64,000 bases of DNA from an uncultured Chthonomonadaceae bacterium (GTDB lineage Bacteria; Armatimonadota; Chthonomonadetes; Chthonomonadales; Chthonomonadaceae). The translations under genes were made by a program, and so were the position numbers. The first letter of the stretch is position 1; every line of letters begins with the position of its first letter. The stretch is from contig CAWIEK010000049.1 of assembly GCA_963835065.1 (NCBI GenBank), forward strand, positions 288,001 to 352,000. Reading direction: 5' to 3'. Below are positions 20,649-53,306 of the stretch, piece by piece. Under the pieces are notes generated by a model, which had not been told where the DNA came from, ran no database searches, and worked only from the letters and a program-made list of their open reading frames with translations.

Positions 20649-22547
20649 ATGAAGCACGTCATTATTGGAACCGCCGGGCACGTAGATCACGGCAAAACCA
20701 CGCTGATTCAAGCGCTGACGGGAACCAATCCCGACCGGCTCAAAGAGGAGCAGGAGCGCGGCATGACCATTGACATTGGTTTCGCCTCGTTGCGCCTGCC
20801 GGACGGCACGATTGCGGGCATTGTGGACGTTCCCGGCCACGAACGGTTCCTCAAAAACATGCTGGCGGGCGCAAGCGGCGTGGACGTGGTACTGCTCGTG
20901 ATTGCCGCAGATGAAGGCGTAATGCCGCAGACTATCGAGCATCTGGACGTGCTGCGCCTGCTGGACGTGAAAAACGGCGTCGTCGCGCTGACTAAAATGG
21001 ACATGGCCGAAAAGGAATGGACGGATGTTGTCGAGGAAGATGTGCGCGAACATCTCAAAGACACCTTTCTGGCGCAGGCCCCGATCATTCGCGTTTCCGC
21101 CAAAACCGGCAAGGGACTGGAAGCCTTGAAAAAAGCGCTGATGGCCGCTGTCAGCCGCGCCGAAGCCCGCAATGCCGGCCTCCCCTTCCGCCTGCCCATT
21201 GACCGCGTGTTTACGCGCCCCGGTTTTGGAACGGTTGTTACCGGGACACTGGCCGCAGGTACAATTCGGACCGGGGATGCCGTTGAAATCGTGCCGCAGC
21301 GACTGAGCGCCCGTGTGCGTGGCCTGCAAGTGCATGGGCAAAAGGTCACGGAAGCGGAAGCGGGATCGCGGGTCGCCATCAATCTTGCGGGCGTGGACAA
21401 TGCCGACCTGGAACGAGGCGCGCAGGTCACGCCACCCCATGCCATTGCCCCTACCACCACATTCGACGCCACGCTGCGCCTGCTCCCCAATGTCGAAAAA
21501 CTGCTGGAGGATCGAGCGCGCGTCCGTCTGCACATGGGAACGGTGGAAGTGTTGGGACGTATCCGCATACTCGATACCAAATCCGAACTTGCGCCCGGAG
21601 AACGCGCTTTTGTGCAATTTCGGGGCGAAACGGAATTTGTCGCGGCGCGTGGAGATCGTTTCGTCGTTCGTTCCTACTCCCCGATGACGGTCATTGGCGG
21701 CGGCGTAGTGCTTGACGCGCACCCCACCCGGCATCGCAAGGCGGAAGCGGATACGTTGACCGCGCTGGAAGCCAAAGAGCGAGGTACGCCCGAAGACCTT
21801 ATAGACACATTACTGCTCAAATCCCCTACAGGCATTTTGCGCTCCGAAATCCCCCCGGCGACGGGACTGACGCCAGGAGAGACAGCCGCAGCTATAGAAG
21901 TTCTGTTAGCCGCAGACAAAGCCGTCCTGCTTCCGCATGAGCGTATCATCAACACCCTTGTACTTGTCGGCCTGACTCAGCGCGCGGAAGAAGCGGTTGA
22001 GCGGTTCCACAACCAGTTTCCGCTGCGTCCGGGAATGCCGCGCGAGGAATTACGCGCCGCTCTTGGACGAAACGTAGACAGCAAAGCCTTTGGTTCGCTG
22101 CTGTCGCGCTGGCACAAAGAGGATCGGTTTACTTCCGAAGGCGCATTTGTGCATCGGGCGGATTTTACCGTTCAGTTGACCGACAAACAGCAGCAGATGC
22201 TGAAGCGCATCGAAGAGGTTTATAAAGCCTGGGGTATTGCCGTTCCTGCCATTGAAGATGTTGCTAAAGAACTAAAAACGCCTGTGGACGCGATCACCTC
22301 CCTGCTGAAAGTCGGACAGGAACAAAAGCGCTTTGAAAAAATCGAAGATGGCATCTATTACCACGTAGATACCATTGCCGGTCTTCAGCAACTGTTACGC
22401 GCTTATCTCGCAGAACACGACAGCATCAGCGTAGGCGAATTCAGAGATTTAACAAGTTCCAACCGGCGCTACTCCCTGATGGCCCTGGAGTTTATGGACA
22501 CAATCCACTTCACCCGGCGGCAAGGCGATCAGCGAACCTTATACTGA
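20649..22547 (+). CDS. selB: Selenocysteine-specific translation elongation factor
   Basis: [39 protein letters not shown], and C-terminal winged helices (FRD...RRY). Confidence 0.96.
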
Positions 22548-22616: not shown

Positions 22617-22720
22617 TAAAACGTCCGATAATATTAAGCCATCCAGACGGCTTAATATCAAACGATTTTTAGGCGCGACGTACGTCGCGCCTAAAAATCG
22701 GGGCCGCGTCGCGGCCCCGA
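22617..22720. repeat. Composite palindromic element, copy 1
   Basis: TAAAACGTCCGATAAT (22617-22632), perfect 38-bp palindrome (22663-22700), and an 11-bp-arm GC hairpin (22698-22720). Confidence 0.9.
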
Positions 22721-22784
22721 ACCTTGTGCTTTCTTCTGCTTTCCTCTTCCAATCTGAGTTATCAATGCGCCGCTCATCAACCTA

Positions 22785-23117
22785 TTAACGGGTAACTGTC
22801 ACATCCTCTCCACTCACCGATACACTCGCGTTCAAGCCCACCTCGAAAAAATCAATGGGCACGTACAAATGGCTATCCGAGATCATGGGTGGCGCGCTCA
22901 ACACGCCAATCTGACCGTCGTACAGCAAGTTGGTATCTCCCGCTGTCATGCTCAATTTTTTGCCTTCCAACTCAACGATAGCTTCCTTGCTCTCGTTGTT
23001 CCAATACACATACCCGCCCAGCGTTTCCACAATCCCACTGAGCGGCACAAACGTCGTGCTGTCCTGTTCAACAGGAGGCGGAAGTTCCAGAAACGAGCCA
23101 TTGATGTTATAAGCCAT
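22785..23117 (-). CDS. Copper amine oxidase-like N-terminal (stalk) domain protein
   Basis: TFVPL...ETLG..V.W and APPMI...LYVPIDF motifs. Confidence 0.8.
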   Translation of the reverse strand: MAYNINGSFLELPPPVEQDSTTFVPLSGIVETLGGYVYWNNESKEAIVELEGKKLSMTAGDTNLLYDGQIGVLSAPPMISDSHLYVPIDFFEVGLNASVSVSGEDVTVTR

Positions 23118-23321
23118 TGTAGATCCCCTTCTCCGATTTGAGATAATCAAGCTGCGCCCGATGGCAACAATATTCAAGATTATTTCACCAAAAAGAAGCG
23201 GCACATCCACAGTTGTGTTGGATGTGCCGCGTAACGATACTTGTTCTGTGCTGAACGACCAATCAGGGAATGTCGCAGTTCGTGTTTCCACATCAACTAC
23301 AAACTATCCATTATCAACGGC

Positions 23322-34058: not shown

Positions 34059-35507
34059 ATGGCGCACACTCCGCACGGCATACTGCCCCTCGAACCCGCA
34101 AACGGTTTTTGGGCGGCCTACAACCGAATTCCCCTCTTTGTCCGCATCCTCGTTGCCATGACGCTAGGCATTATCGCGGGCGAATTGATACCGCCCGCCA
34201 CCATGACGCAGTATGCTCCCTCCTTAAAACTGGTCAGCGACACGATCCTGCAACTGCTGAAACTGCTCGCCACGCCGCTCATCTTTATCGCCGTCGTCCA
34301 CGCCATTTATAAAGCGCAGGCCAGTGGCAAAACCGCAAGCCGTCTTGTGTTCCTGTTGATGCGCAATACAGTTGTCGCCATTTTCATCGGCCTGCTTGTC
34401 GCCAACGTTTTACAGCCGGGAAGGTGGGTACATGCCGCGCCGTCCGGCGACAAAATAGCGACGAAATCTTCCAATTTTCTGCTTGATTTGGTCGGTAAAA
34501 TCCCGGCCAATCTCGTAGACCCGCTTCAGCATAATGAGATTATCTCTATTCTCATCTTAGCGGTCGCGTTCGGCGTCGCCATGCGCCTTGTGCGCGATCA
34601 GCAAGCCCGCGACGGCAAATCCGGCATCAACACCATCGGCGATTTGCTGGATACCGCCTTCAGCATCGTCATGGTCATGTTGCACTGGATTTTCGCCATC
34701 GTGCCTCTTGCTGTCTTCACGGTTGTTACCCGGCAGGTGGGAACCAACGGCGTCAAGCCGCTCATCGGCCTACTGGGGTTTGTCATCGCGGTGGTACTGG
34801 CGCTTGCGTTGCAGGCCGGATGGTATCTCGCAAACGTCCGTTTCCAGTCATGGGTAACGCCCGGACGGTTCCTCCGCGGAGCCTCAGATGCCCTCGTGAT
34901 GGCGTTTTCAACCGCCAGTTCCGCCGCAACCCTACCCGTTACCTATGCGGCTATGAAAGATAAAATCGGGGTACGGGAGGAATCCGCCGGTTTGGGAGTG
35001 ATGGTTGGTGGCACATTCAATCACGACGGCACGGCGCTCTACGAGGCAATGGCCGCCCTGTTCGTCTGTCAGATGCTCGGACAGCATCTAAATTGGGGAG
35101 AACAAATCAAAGTAGTCATCATGTCCGTGTTCGCGTCGGTCGGCGCGGCGGGCATCCCGGAAGCGGGCTTGGTCACGATGCTGGCCGTTTTCTCCGCCGT
35201 CAACCTTCCCACCGAGTACATCGCCCTGTTGCTGCCTCTCGACTGGTTCCTCGACCGCTGCCGCACCGCCATCAACGTCATGGGCGATATGAGCGTCACC
35301 TGCATGATTGACGGCAAAATCGCCCCTCCGAGTGAGGCGACAGCCGGACTCATCTTGCAACACCGGAGATTCACGCCGAAATACTGTCACAGCATTGAAG
35401 CGCATCATCTACTCTTAGTCAATGCGTATGCCGCTGCTCCTCAGGGCTGCTTTGAAACTGAACGATCATACAACCCAATTTGCGCCTGCATGTCGTTGTA
35501 CAATTGA
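34059..35507 (+). CDS. Dicarboxylate/amino acid:cation symporter (DAACS, GltP/GltT-like)
   Basis: AAGGAG RBS; AFSTASSAATLP, NHDGT, GIPEAG, DWFLDRCRTAINVMGD. The C-terminal tail runs into the convergent gene, so the 3' end is uncertain. Confidence 0.92.
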   Translation: MAHTPHGILPLEPANGFWAAYNRIPLFVRILVAMTLGIIAGELIPPATMTQYAPSLKLVSDTILQLLKLLATPLIFIAVVHAIYKAQASGKTASRLVFLLMRNTVVAIFIGLLVANVLQPGRWVHAAPSGDKIATKSSNFLLDLVGKIPANLVDPLQHNEIISILILAVAFGVAMRLVRDQQARDGKSGINTIGDLLDTAFSIVMVMLHWIFAIVPLAVFTVVTRQVGTNGVKPLIGLLGFVIAVVLALALQAGWYLANVRFQSWVTPGRFLRGASDALVMAFSTASSAATLPVTYAAMKDKIGVREESAGLGVMVGGTFNHDGTALYEAMAALFVCQMLGQHLNWGEQIKVVIMSVFASVGAAGIPEAGLVTMLAVFSAVNLPTEYIALLLPLDWFLDRCRTAINVMGDMSVTCMIDGKIAPPSEATAGLILQHRRFTPKYCHSIEAHHLLLVNAYAAAPQGCFETERSYNPICACMSLYN

Positions 35508-36076
35508 TCAAAGGTAACACAAAACACTTTATTAGAGTCAATTAGCACTCTATCAACTCGCCAGCGCAGTCGCTCTGCTTCACCCGGTTCCAGCAGATTG
35601 TGTCGTCCAATCAGCATCAATCCAGAGAATGTTGCATGACGCCCGAACAAGCGTTCAAATTCATTCGTCTGGCGCACATCGCTCACCTTGTAAAACCAGT
35701 CTATGATTTGACTGAAACCATGCTCAAATCGTGGTGACCAATCTCGCGTTGCCTTTTTGCCTGAGCGATCAAAGACACTTCTGGCCGAAGCGTCTTCCAC
35801 TTCAACAAGGCAGTACGCCTTGTTACTCGAATCGCCGATTACCAGGTCACAGCTAAAGTCTCCAGACAAAGACAACTCCGAAGCAACGCAATCCACTTCT
35901 ATGATGCCCGGCACATATAAGTTCGTCAGCGCCGTCAAATGTTTGCAAGCCTTGAAAAGTGGCAGCAGATGTTTGCGTTCCTCCGGTTCTGCTACCGTAT
36001 CCAGAAGCGTCTTCAATGCCTTGACTTCTTGCTGACAAGCCGTAAGATCGAAGGAGTAATGGTCTAAACTTTTCAT
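35441..36076 (-). CDS. Shedu-type anti-phage nuclease (DUF4263, PD-(D/E)XK)
   Basis: EE.....F, EL.L.GDFSCDLVIGD, LVEVEDA, FEHGFSQIIDW, LIGR, TFDQL pattern. Confidence 0.78.
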   Translation of the reverse strand: MKSLDHYSFDLTACQQEVKALKTLLDTVAEPEERKHLLPLFKACKHLTALTNLYVPGIIEVDCVASELSLSGDFSCDLVIGDSSNKAYCLVEVEDASARSVFDRSGKKATRDWSPRFEHGFSQIIDWFYKVSDVRQTNEFERLFGRHATFSGLMLIGRHNLLEPGEAERLRWRVDRVLIDSNKVFCVTFDQLYNDMQAQIGLYDRSVSKQP

Positions 36077-36369
36077 CCGTTTCCACTTGTCTGCGCGGCA
36101 ATTGCTGTCTGAAACGCATCTATTCTGGCTTGAGGAATAATGTCTAACACTTCCAACCCTTCCGACGATTTTTCGAAGAAGACACGCAGACTGGGACCGA
36201 CTGGAATCATATAGATGCCCTCCGGCTTTATCCACACCTGCACATCCGGGATTTTCTCCCATTCTTCCTGCGCCTGATCCACCTTCTTGACAGCCTGCTC
36301 TATTTGTTTGCGTATCCCCGGCTTCAGTGTATTGATCTGGATATAAGCCCGGTTGGTAAAGCTGATCAT
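36073..36369 (-). CDS. RelE/ParE-like small protein
   Basis: GAGGAGG RBS; ISFTNRA..QI..L, IY.I.VG.SLRVFF, I/V.DI pattern; ATGA-coupled to the Shedu-like gene. Confidence 0.6.
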   Translation of the reverse strand: MISFTNRAYIQINTLKPGIRKQIEQAVKKVDQAQEEWEKIPDVQVWIKPEGIYMIPVGPSLRVFFEKSSEGLEVLDIIPQARIDAFQTAIAAQTSGNG

Positions 36370-40500: not shown

Positions 40501-41282
40501 CTAAACGCCCAACTCCGCCCAAAGCAGTTCATCCAGCAACGCAGCCGGCATTTCCCTGTCCGGCAGTTCCGTCACCTGCTCACCCACGCGCAGAAGTTCG
40601 CCGTCAATAAAGCCGTCCAGCAACGTATCATGCGCTTCCGTTCCCAACTCCACCGCCTGCTTTTTGCGTTCCATGAGTTCATCCAGCCGCGTTCGCACAT
40701 CGGAACGGAAGCGCAATGCTTGCCAGCGCGTCGTGTATGGATGTTGGCGGCGGTGTCTGATGCTGCTCCATCCAGCGTATGCAGCACAAAGGCCGCAGCA
40801 CGTACAAATATTTTTTCAGCGAAACTTCCGCCTTGTTCTCAATCGAAAGCCGGTAGTTCGACTTCGCCATGCTGATGTAATGGTACGTCATGCGGCGCGG
40901 CGAAAAATGTTCCTGCGCCAGCATACGCAGCCGCGAAGCAAAGTCGCCATTCTCTCGATAGACTATGGGCGAGTGCAGCCATTCCAGCAGGGACGGGTTC
41001 GACTTGCGAAACTGCGTCAGCGCCTTCACCATATCCCACCCGTTGATGTCCAAATCCCCTTCAATGGGCAATTCGATCACATCCCGGCGTTCCTGCAAGC
41101 GGACATAATCCCGAACGCCCCGCTTGATAAACAAAGCGAACATCATAATCACTGTCCGGTGACGCAAAGCCCCACGCCCGACTGCCCAACTCCACCGCAA
41201 ACAACAGCCGCGCATCCTGTTCGCGCTCCAACCGGTCAAGTTCACCCTGTATTCTGCTGCCAACACTGTCCACTTCGCTCAT
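40501..41282 (-). pseudogene. Nucleotidyltransferase (YcgL/RlaP-like), two frameshifts
   Basis: GSRAWGFASPDSDYDVRFVY, then KSNPSLLEWLHSPIVY and KKYLYVLRP in a second frame, then the C-terminus in ORF 40501-40716 after another shift. May be assembly error. Confidence 0.75.
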
Positions 41283-43694: not shown

Positions 43695-45794
43695 TCACGC
43701 CCGCTTAAACTGCTTATCCAGTTCGTGAAACGGGATCGTCACCACAATTGGCCGGCCATGTGGACACAGGTACGGATTTTCCGTTTCCGCGAGTTGCTCC
43801 AGCAGTCCCTCCATCTCCGCCATCTCCATCGGATCGCCCGCTTTCACCGCCAGTTTACAGGCATTGGTAATCGTCACATGCTCCTGTTGCACCAGCAAAC
43901 GCCGTGACACGGTTTGATTTACCAGTTCATCAATCATATCTCGCAGGATTTTCTCATAAGGCTTGTGCGCCAGCATCGCCGGAACCGAGCGCACCACAAA
44001 ACTATCCTTGCCGAACGCGGAAATCTCCCACCCTGCCCGCGTGAAACTATCGCAATGTTCCGCCAGCAATAGCGCTTCTCGCCGCCCCAAATTGATGGTA
44101 ATCGGAACTGCCAGATGCTGCACCGGGATACCGTTCGCAAAACGCTTCACCGTCAGCCGCTCATACAAAACCCGTTCATGGGCAACATGCTGATCAATCA
44201 CGGCAATACCATTGGGCGTCAGCGCGATAATGTACGTATTCCGCGCCTGCCCAAGTACGCGAAACTCTCGCAACTGTTCCGCAAAAGGCTTTGGAACGGG
44301 CGGCGCTTGCAAAGGCTCCTCATCGGAAGAAACGGTACATGGGGTCAGCACATTGGCAACAGCAATGAAGTCACGAGACTCCGTAGAAATCACTGACTCA
44401 GAGGACGCAGAAGATAATCCGGCATTGGTATCATTATCCTCGCTCCCTGCCGCGCCTGCAATCGTTTGCGTCGATTCGGCTTGCGCCTCTTCATTCCTTG
44501 CGCCTTCCGGCATAGACGACGGCAACGGCTGCGGTTCTCTGTCTGATGCAGCAGTATCTATATCGGCAGCGTTCGGAGGATAGGTTTCTGGCGCGGCATG
44601 GGAGGTTTCCAAAGGCGCGAACGCGCCAATAGCGGCGGCAAACGCGCTTGCCGCGTCATGGAAGGGCGAGGCCGTTGTCGCATTCGGCATTGTGGAAGCG
44701 GAACTGCCCGCAGCAGAAGCGCCTCCAAACCCAAAATTGGTCTGCGAGGAAACCGGCGCAACGGGATTCGTCACCGTAATCCGCGCCTGTGGCACGATGC
44801 CGTATGCCAGCAACGCCCCCTTCACTGCCTGACTCGCCGCATGATGCACTTCGCCGTCCCGCGTAAACTTTACTTCCGTTTTTGTCGGATGCACGTTGAC
44901 ATCCACCAGGTCGGGATGTATTTCCACAAACAACGCACCGATAGGATACCGGCTGTCAGGCGTCAGGGACCGAAATGCCTCTTCCATCGCGTGGCCGATA
45001 AGCCGACTTTTGATAGGCCGCCTATTCACAAAGAACAACTCATGGGAACGTCCGGGACGCGAAATATCCGGCGTGGCAACAAAGCCCGACACGTTCAATC
45101 CCGGCGACTTGTGCGCAATAGGAATTAACTTACGCGCCACTTCCCGCCCCCACACCGCCGCCAGCGCCGCCAACGGCTCCCCTGTTCCCGGCGTGGCAAA
45201 TATCTCCTGCGTCCCATGCCGCAGGCGAAACGCGATTCCCGGATACGCAATCGCAAGTTGCCCCACAATCTCCATTGTACGGGCTACTTCCGTTGGCGTA
45301 CTCTTCAAGAACTTCATACGTGCCGGCGTGTTGAAGAACAGTTCGCTGACTTCAATCGTTGTGCCGTTCCGCGCCGCTACGTCTTCCACGCTTTGTATGT
45401 CGCCTGCCTGCACAATCAAGCGCGTACCGCTTTCGTCCTCCGGCGGTTTGGTAGTGATCGTCAGACGTGATACCGAAGCAATGGAAGGCATCGCTTCGCC
45501 GCGAAAACCCAATGTTTTAATCGCAAACAGATCGTCTGCCGTTCGGATTTTACTCGTAGCATGGCGCTGTAAGGCAAGAATGGCATCCGAGCGCGTCATG
45601 CCGAAGCCGTTATCCGCCACGATCAAACTCTGCTTGCCCCCCTCTTCCAGCGCAATGACGATCTGCGTTGCCCCCGCGTCTATCGCATTCTCTACCAATT
45701 CCTTCACGGCGGAAGCAGGCCGTTCCACAACTTCGCCCGCCGCAATCTGATTAGCCGTATTTTCATCCAGCAGCACCACGCGATCTATTGCCAT
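43695..45794 (-). CDS. mutL: DNA mismatch repair endonuclease MutL
   Basis: NQIAAGEVVERP, GFRGEA, DVNVHPTK, DQHVAHER, ACK, CPHGRP. Confidence 0.98.
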   Translation of the reverse strand: MAIDRVVLLDENTANQIAAGEVVERPASAVKELVENAIDAGATQIVIALEEGGKQSLIVADNGFGMTRSDAILALQRHATSKIRTADDLFAIKTLGFRGEAMPSIASVSRLTITTKPPEDESGTRLIVQAGDIQSVEDVAARNGTTIEVSELFFNTPARMKFLKSTPTEVARTMEIVGQLAIAYPGIAFRLRHGTQEIFATPGTGEPLAALAAVWGREVARKLIPIAHKSPGLNVSGFVATPDISRPGRSHELFFVNRRPIKSRLIGHAMEEAFRSLTPDSRYPIGALFVEIHPDLVDVNVHPTKTEVKFTRDGEVHHAASQAVKGALLAYGIVPQARITVTNPVAPVSSQTNFGFGGASAAGSSASTMPNATTASPFHDAASAFAAAIGAFAPLETSHAAPETYPPNAADIDTAASDREPQPLPSSMPEGARNEEAQAESTQTIAGAAGSEDNDTNAGLSSASSESVISTESRDFIAVANVLTPCTVSSDEEPLQAPPVPKPFAEQLREFRVLGQARNTYIIALTPNGIAVIDQHVAHERVLYERLTVKRFANGIPVQHLAVPITINLGRREALLLAEHCDSFTRAGWEISAFGKDSFVVRSVPAMLAHKPYEKILRDMIDELVNQTVSRRLLVQQEHVTITNACKLAVKAGDPMEMAEMEGLLEQLAETENPYLCPHGRPIVVTIPFHELDKQFKRA

Positions 45795-46033
45795 AGCAAA
45801 CCCCATTCTTACCCATTGGCCGTAACTGGCAGAGTAATGCAGCCTAATTACAAGAACCGGCCTCTCAACACCCAACACCTAATACCCAACACCCACAAAC
45901 GAATAACGTAGACAGAAACTAACTACACCCTACAATAACCATACCCTAAATCCGCACATTTCGCATAGACCAACAGGAGAGTTGCTTAAGAACCTCTTCC
46001 TATCCTTACAGGAAAAGCCCAATTTTCACCGCA

Positions 46034-46141
46034 TAAAACGTCCGATAATGTAGTCGGCTCAGATCAGAAGAACAACATACCAATTTTTTGTGGAGCGCGT
46101 ACGCGCTCCACAAAAAATTGCGGGCCGCGACGCGGCCCGCA
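46034..46141. repeat. Composite palindromic element, copy 2
   Basis: TAAAACGTCCGATAAT (46034-46049), perfect 40-bp palindrome (46081-46120), and an 11-bp-arm GC hairpin (46119-46141). Confidence 0.9.
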
Positions 46142-46167: not shown

Positions 46168-46539
46168 TCACAACAACGATTCGCACAGAATGGTATCCTC
46201 ATCCGTGTACGCGGGAACACAGCAGCACAGAAATACTAGGGGTTCCTGCCCCGTATTCCGTATCTGATGCCGCTTTCCCGCAGGAATACAGATGCCATCC
46301 CCTACAGTCACCGAACGCTGTTCCGCTTCAATTGCCATCACGCCACTTCCATGCAGGATGTAATACAGCTCCTCCGTATTAGGGTGCGAATGTGCCTGCG
46401 TAGTCGCGCCGGCCTCTATTGTCGCTTCGGCAAGACTCTGGCGCTGCGTTTCTGAATTACGCGGCGCCAGTATCTCCCGAATAATCGAGGTATCTTTGGT
46501 CGTAAACGCATGTACTTCATTGCGATTTACAACATCCAT
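46168..46539 (-). CDS. Cupin domain protein
   Basis: HSHPNTEELYYIL and IPAGKRHQIRN motifs. Confidence 0.9.
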   Translation of the reverse strand: MDVVNRNEVHAFTTKDTSIIREILAPRNSETQRQSLAEATIEAGATTQAHSHPNTEELYYILHGSGVMAIEAEQRSVTVGDGICIPAGKRHQIRNTGQEPLVFLCCCVPAYTDEDTILCESLL

Positions 46540-49473: not shown

Positions 49474-49591
49474 TTCTGGCGGCGACCTATTTTCCCAGGA
49501 AGTTCCCCCCCAAGTATCGTCGGCGCAACTGGCTTTCACGACCGTGTTCGGGATGGGAACGGGTGGGACACCAACGCTATGACCACCAGAA
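49474..49591 (-). rRNA. rrf: 5S ribosomal RNA
   Basis: Minus strand CTGGTGGTCATAGC...CCCGTTCCCATCCCGAACACGG...AATAGGTCGCCGCCAG. Confidence 0.95.
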
Positions 49592-50078
49592 ACCGGTGCG
49601 CTCTCCCCAATTACCTGCACGAGAGAGCGAAAGTTTCTGCACCTGCGTTTACAGGTGAGCGCCTGCTGGCAAGAACATTGCTGCTCTGCACACAGGCAAA
49701 ATCTGTTTACAACGGAACGTTCTTCCCGCCAAGACAACCTGCGTTGTCCTGCCGGGAAGAACCGAAGTGTGTGTCGGATGCGAGTAGTCTGCGTTTGTAC
49801 CGCCATGTACGGTTTGTACGGTGCGGACACAACATTGTCTGTTCTACTGAACCTAGTCTGTTGTGTCGTTGCTGCACATGAACCTTACAGTTGCGCGGTG
49901 TTGTCTTTCTTTCTTTCAGCGCGGCTTTGTCCGTGCTTGCTTCCTCATCGCACACGCTTGTTTGTCGCTTCGTGTCTGCGTTTCCTGCCGTTGCTCTTCC
50001 TCTCTCTTTTACAGAGGGGATGAACGCCGGGAGGACGGCAACTTCCTCACGCCTTACAACCGCGTTTCTTGAGAACAC

Positions 50079-53306
<3,228 letters not shown>

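Follow-up and report, generated by a model that had tools for sequence, protein, structure and literature searches.

The window, a stretch of 64,000 nucleotides on contig C49 of an uncultured Chthonomonadaceae genome (G000, 8.0 Mb), carries two copies of a composite intergenic element. Copy 1 opens with a 16-mer (22617-22632) that includes, on the plus strand, the sequence ACGTCCGATAA (22621..22631), the XerC-arm half of dif, which agrees in every base with the left arm of canonical dif sites in sister families. This arm points away from dif and the XerD arm is absent downstream of it. The spacer-like hexamer that follows, TATTAA (22632..22637, +), begins with three bases that fit the T-R-T of the satellite sites, the half-sites scattered around dif; dif has T-A-C at this position. 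A 30-nt gap (22633-22662) leads to a perfect loopless palindrome of 38 bp (22663..22700, axis 22681/22682), built in the order T-tract, G/C-rich arm, CGTACG centre and A-tract. Sequence and fold also reveal, in the linker of this copy alone, a 10-bp inverted repeat with an 8-nt loop (22631..22658), which is missing from copy 2. The outer end of the element is a GC hairpin (22698-22720) which, read on the minus strand, runs into a T-tract (22693-22697); this terminator-like match (22693..22720, -) is predicted to be an intrinsic terminator for transcription towards dif.

Copy 2 (16-mer 46034-46049, element end 46141) has the same design. Its XerC arm (46038..46048, +) also points away from dif, the spacer-like hexamer TGTAGT (46049..46054, +) equals that of an opposite-arm copy at C49:270006, and the perfect loopless palindrome, of 40 bp (46081..46120), is again centred on CGTACG. 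The GC hairpin (46119-46141) and its minus-strand T-tract (together 46111..46141, -) form a predicted inward-facing intrinsic terminator. Folding z-scores of the elements range from -7.7 to -8.6, and none of 200 shuffles folded equally well. The arrangement of 16-mer, gap, palindrome and hairpin reported in an initial annotation of this DNA, the coordinates of both copies and the lack of a XerD arm after either of them were all reproduced.

The inner neighbours of copies 1 and 2 are selB (20649..22547, +) and mutL (43695..45878, -), respectively. The outer neighbours, a gene for a copper-amine-oxidase N-terminal domain (22785..23291, -) and a cupin gene (46168..46539, -), both read towards the hairpin. 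The junction between selB and the core is preserved in two related genomes, G001 and G002. Between the two copies lie a Shedu SduA-type defence domain (35441-36262, -) and a nucleotidyltransferase of the RlaP family (40679-41266, -). The window also holds 23S and 5S rRNA genes (49474-53304, -), at most about 55 kb from dif, an unusual site for an rRNA operon. At the gathering threshold, Rfam matched only these rRNAs in the window and left the element unmatched.

The 12-mer ACGTCCGATAAT occurs seven times in the 8.0 Mb of G000, against 0.64 occurrences expected from base composition: at 259754(-), 270006(-), 287325(+), 310621(+, copy 1) and 334038(+, copy 2) of C49, and at 130480(-) and 132825(+) of C16, a contig of a second replicon. 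A perfect palindrome of 38-46 bp follows six of them, the exception being 287325, which is dif; base composition predicts 0.00017 perfect palindromes of at least 36 bp for the whole genome. The initial annotation was thus correct about a second copy in the window but not about a total of two, since six palindrome copies exist genome-wide and more in related genera, which also disposes of its reservation that no further copies might be found. Its "invariant 16-mer" likewise needs trimming: the conserved part is 11-12 nt (ACGTCCGATAA, with a final T in the longer form), and the full 16-mer occurs three times in the genome, the third exact match being dif itself. An assembly artefact can be ruled out by conservation in 10 genera and by the independent sequencing run X1, which has a different symmetric palindrome at the copy 1 locus, with three mirrored changes in the arm. 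In one contig of another run, X3, the core is retained but 22633-22766 is missing, and with it palindrome and hairpin; this case is weak, with 29 letters on its short side.

Comparison with relatives assigns the core to one arm of dif. It was present in 27 of the 31 genomes of a first search of relatives. Twelve sister-family genomes were searched for it, and in all ten with a match the canonical XerD arm, TTATGT, comes six bases after it. The same core is followed by N6-TTATGT in many Planctomycetota and Bacillota matches. Within the Chthonomonadaceae, one copy per chromosome retains a degenerate XerD arm, mostly GTATG. The dif of G000, with GTATG, is found at C49:287325, which is 676 bp ahead of the window start. 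G001 has one site that combines a XerD arm with a palindrome. The cumulative GC-skew maximum lies 423 bp from dif in G000, 398 bp in G001 and 32 bp in G002. The resemblance to a XerC-side dif half-site, described as loose in the initial annotation, is therefore genuine: the core is the XerC arm, as the sister-family dif sites show.

The genome encodes both xerC and xerD (best NCBIfam matches, both under the curated cut-offs). All of the 30 family members compared have the same recognition-helix stretch in XerC, LSDRGIRR, while the matching stretch of XerD varies; XerC is also nearer than XerD to the G000 sequence in 23 of 23 genomes. In parallel, the left arm of the family dif is invariant and the right arm drifts. 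In Proteobacteria the opposite pattern is described in passages of one study, the XerC arm not being the invariant one (PMC2731167). Since the core is identical to the left arm of dif and the invariant XerC helix mirrors the invariant left arm, we strongly infer that XerC binds the core.

Across the family, XerD (L161:2237-3220 in G000) bears in its catalytic domain a basic insertion that varies and is AT-hook-like in some members, and its recognition helix drifts. The insertion was rejected as a correlate of the palindrome, being present too in palindrome-free genera, and a XerD tree of 30 rows did not resolve the monophyly of palindrome-bearing genera. The DNA directly downstream of dif has features of its own. 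An inverted repeat with a 24-bp stem and the motif GAACCYRGG is found in G000 at about C49:287456-287506, some 500 bp before the window; it resembles an SOS box of the form GAAC-N4-GTTC. Similar dif-adjacent repeats occur in G002, G010, G039, G042, G048 and G049, and the motifs GGGGGAC and CRTTG-N4/5-CAAYG recur directly downstream of dif.

In G000, dif is flanked by four palindrome-bearing half-sites, two of them in the window, all outward-facing. This mirrored layout around dif is the main feature of the system, and it was out of sight for the initial annotation. This polarity is general: satellites point outward from dif in 41 of 41 cases in 13 genomes (eight in G013, six in G035, five in G002, four each in G000 and G049, three in G001, two each in G039, G048, G038 and G017, and one each in G041, G042 and G005). 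The tally, counted by hand, comprises exact sites no more than 60 kb from dif on dif-bearing contigs; six of the genome lists come from the 12-mer search, and many of the sites are orthologous and so not independent. On contig C139 of G017, which does not contain dif, the orientations are -, +, -. The satellites are multiple and lie 10-50 kb from the GC-skew switch. Taken together, the elements very probably constitute a polar array of XerC half-sites at the terminus. No clustered polar set was found in other families among 121 sampled genomes of the phylum; a wide polar set in G095, of another family, was rejected because neither a XerD arm nor a hairpin follows its sites, and it looks like chance. 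The chromosome of G000 also has an array of 16 tRNA genes beside a tyrosine integrase gene (C49:430274-432286).

The contig C16, on which parAB and a probable rep gene are found, is homologous to a 326-kb replicon of G001. Both secondary replicons have a single inverted pair of elements, with the skew switch between or at the pair. A symmetric resolution-like site, composed of two ACTTCCGATA arms and a 7-bp spacer, is located 1-4 kb outside the pair in both (G000 C16:126437-126465; G001 C3 at 38707) and is possibly the resolution site of the replicon. A tyrosine recombinase of Cre-like size is encoded near parAB (C16:76925-77914).

A composite pattern for the module matched 18 of 42 Chthonomonadaceae genomes, of which 17, in 10 of 23 genera, were kept, G005 having no palindrome. 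A GTDB-wide scan of one genome per species with a pattern that makes no demand of symmetry yielded 78 loci. The 38 loci of the family or order comprise 36 perfect palindromes of at least 28 bp, one with a single mismatch and one degenerate; a palindrome was found at none of the remaining 40. Among 84 distinct family cores, 53 have a strong inverted repeat nearby, which is loopless in 47 (46 perfect, one with a mismatch) and looped in six, four of these beside dif. The palindrome arms are 14-24 bp long, the 5' arm being G-rich. From core to axis the distance is 51-76 bp, except for a C16 copy with 171 bp, and the T-tract stops 8-14 bp short of the axis. Eight variants of the central four bases occur, each of them self-complementary; the central pair is A/T in 46 of 47 palindromes. 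As the initial annotation had remarked from two copies, the arms drift while symmetry is kept; across the family the centres vary too. The combination of variable spacing, free sequence and strict symmetry suggests that the symmetry reflects folding or copying rather than a fixed site for a dimeric protein.

There are traces of such copying. Near-identical paralogues in G049 and in G050 differ by one base, mirrored in both arms. The same centre is shared by 30 of 56 same-genome pairs (permutation mean 10, maximum 26), a test inflated by within-genus kinship, and in several genomes paralogues are alike from the core outward through the linker and not upstream of it. Shared centres and shared linkers indicate that the module is exchanged between sites. 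The loopless palindrome is also dispensable, as judged from palindrome-free and looped genera: G013 has only half-sites (eight exact satellites), and G041 and G042 have a looped hairpin at the same distance in its place. It could be asked whether the palindrome is a mere by-product with no function itself, a fold-back copy of the DNA beyond an ordinary terminator hairpin, which template switching made perfect and conversion carried from one element with a functional half-site to another. The copying of modules among paralogues, the use of the palindrome A-tract as the U-tract of the terminator, and the lack of a palindrome in several genera and in one X3 contig fit this idea. We nevertheless consider it improbable, because the palindrome is kept in 10 genera with a narrow range of arm length, a G-rich 5' arm, an A/T central pair and a set range of distances from the core, and because the other terminators of the genome are without such palindromes.

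Telomere resolvases need perfect symmetry through the central six bases. Symmetry is perfect through the axis in 46 of 47 loopless palindromes and the arms change in mirror image, so that hairpin-telomere resolution sites of the protelomerase type, cut at the axis and sealed at the ends, come to mind. This is a very remote prospect: no member of the ResT/TelK family (PF16684) was found in the 6 genomes searched, long contigs pass the sites without interruption, rho, guaA, selB and metH would be separated from the rest if several sites were cleaved, and the spacing from T-tract to axis varies from 8 to 14 bp.

The statement in the initial annotation that long loopless palindromes are usually unstable in bacteria is unconfirmed for lengths of 38-40 bp, the passages of the literature at hand concerning 246-480 bp. 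The palindrome elements co-occur with SbcD. Loss of SbcD (present in 41 of 42 genomes), of Smc (37 of 42) or of Topo IV (a single GyrA-type gene in 42 of 42) was rejected as a cause of the palindrome, since none of them tracks with it. KOPS inside the palindrome arms were also rejected: some arms are G-rich look-alikes, but the chromosomal arms of G000 are not.

The outer hairpin has a stem of at least seven pairs in 32 of 42 elements. At least five T are present in the 9 nt past the stem in 30 of these 32 when read towards dif and in 4 of 32 when read outward, and the outer gene points inward to the hairpin in 30 of 34 cases, by crude gene calls. The hairpin is best read as a probable terminator of inward transcription, its T-tract being supplied by the palindrome. 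Like an intrinsic terminator, it has a GC stem that runs into a T-tract, and it lies 3' of a gene that points inward. However, that likeness covers the outer hairpin only: the large palindrome, with T-tract, stem and A-tract on both strands, is the reverse of a bidirectional terminator.

Elements occupy orthologous gaps in G000, G001 and G002, and partly in G035 and G013; as read, the neighbours of these gaps are proS, an MTAP-like gene, selB and mutL. Such positions argue against mobility. The initial annotation had offered a REP-like or mobile element on the one hand and a recombinase target on the other, and of these the second is plausible. In favour of a REP- or MITE-like mobile or selfish element, the module is short, palindromic, intergenic and copied between sites. 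The reading is nonetheless largely refuted, and we give it hardly any credence: there are only 3-6 copies per genome, restricted to the terminus and strictly polar, they occupy orthologous intergenic sites in different genera, shared by up to five genomes, and they have neither a linked transposase nor a match in Rfam. The HUH/RAYT transposase that the initial annotation proposed to look for is not linked to the element, the four Y1 matches (PF01797) being on other contigs or about 190 kb away.

Gaps with elements are also where the terminus region has mostly been rearranged. The 40-kb segment between the inner pair of G000 has the opposite orientation in G002, and each of its ends lies in an element gap; copy 1 joins the inner flank of one G002 element to the outer flank of another. 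Four further breakpoints separate G001 from G002, three of them at elements or dif. Altogether, an arm is present in 5 of 60 gaps, and these few gaps hold five of the six distinct breakpoints on the chromosome (P = 0.002, weighted by gap length). On the secondary replicon, the DNA enclosed by the pair is likewise inverted, its ends being less sharply placed.

These inversions between inverted pairs on both replicons are among the observations that would suit auxiliary Xer sites facing FtsK, at which XerC recruits a XerD of relaxed specificity onto non-consensus DNA. The sites would be a back-up for dif on both arms, for dimer resolution or for stepwise decatenation in the absence of Topo IV. 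Their empty XerD side would face FtsK coming from either arm. FtsK is present in 5 of 5 genomes and the KOPS-type motif GGGNAGGG is polar here (106 vs 27). T-R-T is conserved where XerC exchanges strands (spacer consensus in palindrome-bearing sites: T 41/42, R 42/42, T 41/42), the sequence shared by paralogues runs from the core outward and not upstream, and both the XerD helix and the XerD arm of dif are degenerate. Moreover, parC is lacking, with one GyrA/ParC-type gene per genome in 42 of 42 by match positions, and passages of PMC3325230 indicate that XerCD-FtsK can replace Topo IV in E. coli. We still regard this as unlikely. The XerD position of the satellites is nearly unconserved (at most 0.65 bit), and identical spacers are found in three copies in G050 and in G053 and in a same-arm pair in G039, which would lead to DNA deletion if the sites were fully active. 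In addition, the resolution-like site of the secondary replicon lies outside the pair and the palindrome goes unexplained.

Two gene structures touch on these proteins. The ftsK gene of G000 is seemingly in two frames (C71:37251-37818), possibly through a sequencing error, and gyrA (C44:198328-200271) has an in-frame insertion, probably an intein, with similar ones in G001, G002, G011, G039, G040 and G053.

GC skew bears on where replication ends. In G001 its magnitude is below 0.06 in 12 of 12 distant 20-kb samples (C2), rises to about 0.13 just beyond the array and is zero at dif. The profile of G001 C2 and G000 C49 is unusual, with near-zero skew across most of the chromosome and peaks of about 0.13 flanking the terminus. 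Third-position skew is 0.10-0.13 within the inner pair vs 0.24-0.31 outside. On the scale of a smooth curve, the skew drops to zero across only about 10-31 kb, and a step model placed at the innermost elements fits no better than that curve (SSE 196 vs 195, 177 vs 193 and 165 vs 148), so that a hard trap is unsupported. The skew shows a narrow termination zone but is no demonstration of arrest at the elements; its outer decay could also stem from scrambling of the remaining chromosome.

Three machines that travel from origin to terminus could read the polarity of the array: the replisome, Smc-ScpAB and FtsK. Smc and FtsK are both found in the family. The models built on forks, on SMC and on auxiliary Xer sites are not mutually exclusive.

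For SMC, the closest precedent for half-sites is found in Bacillus. In B. subtilis, XerD unloads Smc-ScpAB at dif-like sites (XDS) in the terminus region, several of which are thought necessary, according to passages that cite the original work (Karaboja 2021, in PMC11840125, PMC11894783, PMC10945525 and PMC13220808); A-tracts are described, also in passing, as correlating with Smc stalling in archaea. By analogy, XerC at several half-sites could remove or block origin-derived Smc-ScpAB, with the palindrome on the arrival side, the A-tracts and the hairpin slowing SMC for capture. Smc occurs in 37 of 42 family genomes, both congeners included, ParB occurs in 5 of 5, and the palindrome-free G013 has more satellites (eight) than the palindrome-bearing G000-G002 (three to five). 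However, as far as those passages go, XDS bind XerD and not XerC, and Smc was not found in the G000 assembly (92% complete). SMC also travels on duplex DNA, from which a GC-rich 38-bp palindrome would be unlikely to extrude, so that its perfect central symmetry is left unexplained. The palindrome sits between mostly convergent or inward-pointing genes. A sample of 121 small genomes of the class of G163, examined for the polarity of Bacillus XDS, had no usable clusters. Canonical parS was not found in G000, G001 or G035. We hold an XDS-like function to be a serious possibility, nearly as likely as the fork brake discussed next, although on balance a doubtful one.

The reading that we tentatively favour is that XerC and the hairpins form a direction-specific brake or trap for replication forks. 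XerC would bind the half-site arm on its own, and the outer hairpin with its T-tract would halt inward transcripts, keeping RNA polymerase off the site. The helicase would slow at bound XerC, and the freshly unwound loopless palindrome could then fold on both template strands. Folding would prolong the pause, so that forks would fuse only in a zone of a few tens of kb that surrounds dif. Paused forks would switch templates, whereby one arm would be rewritten from the other and two elements would sometimes be joined; this would explain mirrored mutations, sharing of modules and inversions. The fork brake is favoured because it explains the layout, the lone pair of the secondary replicon, the loopless symmetry and the breakpoints together. 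That pair brackets the skew switch and not the resolution-like site, and is counted in favour of forks. Passages of published work provide parallels: opposed groups of Ter sites are the layout of the Tus and RTP traps (PMC13220808), two-site fork traps exist (PMC8707476), and in E. coli a 460-bp palindrome folds on both templates during replication when perfect and not when interrupted (PMC4245961).

Several observations weigh on the other side. The placement of the palindrome on the origin side would suit the pausing of a normal fork better than the stopping of one that has overshot, and the E. coli folding data concern palindromes ten times longer. Palindrome-free genera, looped hairpins and the X3 contig without a palindrome also speak against it. 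In addition, the position of parB departs from the exact antipode of dif by no more than 8 kb in G001, a near-complete genome, by about 22 kb in G013 and by about 48 kb in G005; asymmetry of origin and terminus was therefore rejected as an argument for a trap, and with origin and dif nearly antipodal a trap would be barely needed. To our knowledge, there is no report of XerC blocking forks.

If the fork brake is the correct reading, it would be an undescribed control of where replication finishes. A bolder and more doubtful version of it is that this is a third independently evolved fork trap, in which the housekeeping recombinase XerC works with a loopless palindrome that corrects itself and is shielded by a transcription terminator, so that a dedicated terminator protein is dispensed with. 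The trap would serve the chromosome as well as the secondary replicon, and inversions of the terminus would be its by-product. According to passages of PMC13220808 and PMC3317982, only a small group of bacteria is known to have fork traps, and the confinement of termination elsewhere is open.

The arrays share with Tus/Ter and RTP/Ter two opposed, nested polar groups around dif, with a two-site version on the second replicon. Unlike these, they combine a recombinase half-site with fold-prone DNA and show no skew step; searches with positive controls detected neither Tus (0 of 5 genomes) nor RTP (0 of 5). In bacteria with MukBEF, MatP binds matS, a palindrome that is short and has no polarity. 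Here too multiple sites mark a terminus domain, but the satellites are polar and the host family has Smc. With dif and XerCD, the satellites share the 11-bp XerC arm and an intergenic position, the dif of the family being at the skew switch; they differ in lacking a XerD arm, in being several mirrored copies 10-50 kb from dif, and in their palindrome and hairpin. XDS are similar as far as the citing passages describe them, in that several dif-like Xer sites lie within the terminus region, in an organism that has both ParB and Smc-ScpAB. In contrast, the satellites correspond by homology and helix conservation to the XerC arm and not the XerD arm, possess a perfect palindrome and a terminator-like hairpin and occur on a secondary replicon as well. 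The satellites themselves are strictly polar. Finally, in attP sites of the CTXphi type, XerC performs the only exchange on folded single-stranded DNA (PMC5357621). As described there, they too have a XerC arm without a matching XerD side beside foldable DNA; in the satellites, however, the XerC arm is outside the hairpin, and these are fixed chromosomal landmarks without phage genes.

The dif arm, the array of Xer half-sites and the terminator are thus of known kinds, whereas the literature searches turned up no polar form built on XerC and a self-mirroring palindrome. No description of the element was among the papers listed, and "armatimonad" or "chthonomonad" is nowhere mentioned in the matches checked; subscription papers fell mostly outside the scope of the searches, so that an earlier description is possible. 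In Bacillus, XerD is known to have a second role at half-sites. The module, of about 100 bp, has natural variants (loopless palindrome, looped hairpin or none) and can be cloned with its xerC, which allows a direct test of whether a recombinase half-site with fold-prone DNA pauses forks, unloads SMC or stops FtsK. The natural series of palindromes with mirror-image arm changes is unusually clean and would be useful in studies of correction by template switching.

The genome of G000 also has a second, unrelated kind of palindrome. There are 87 perfect palindromes centred on ACATGT, nearly all of them the 20-mer GGRCAYAACATGTTRTGYCC, often paired 30-150 bp apart; examples are found at C49:48269, 95641 and 95701, and they are REP-like.
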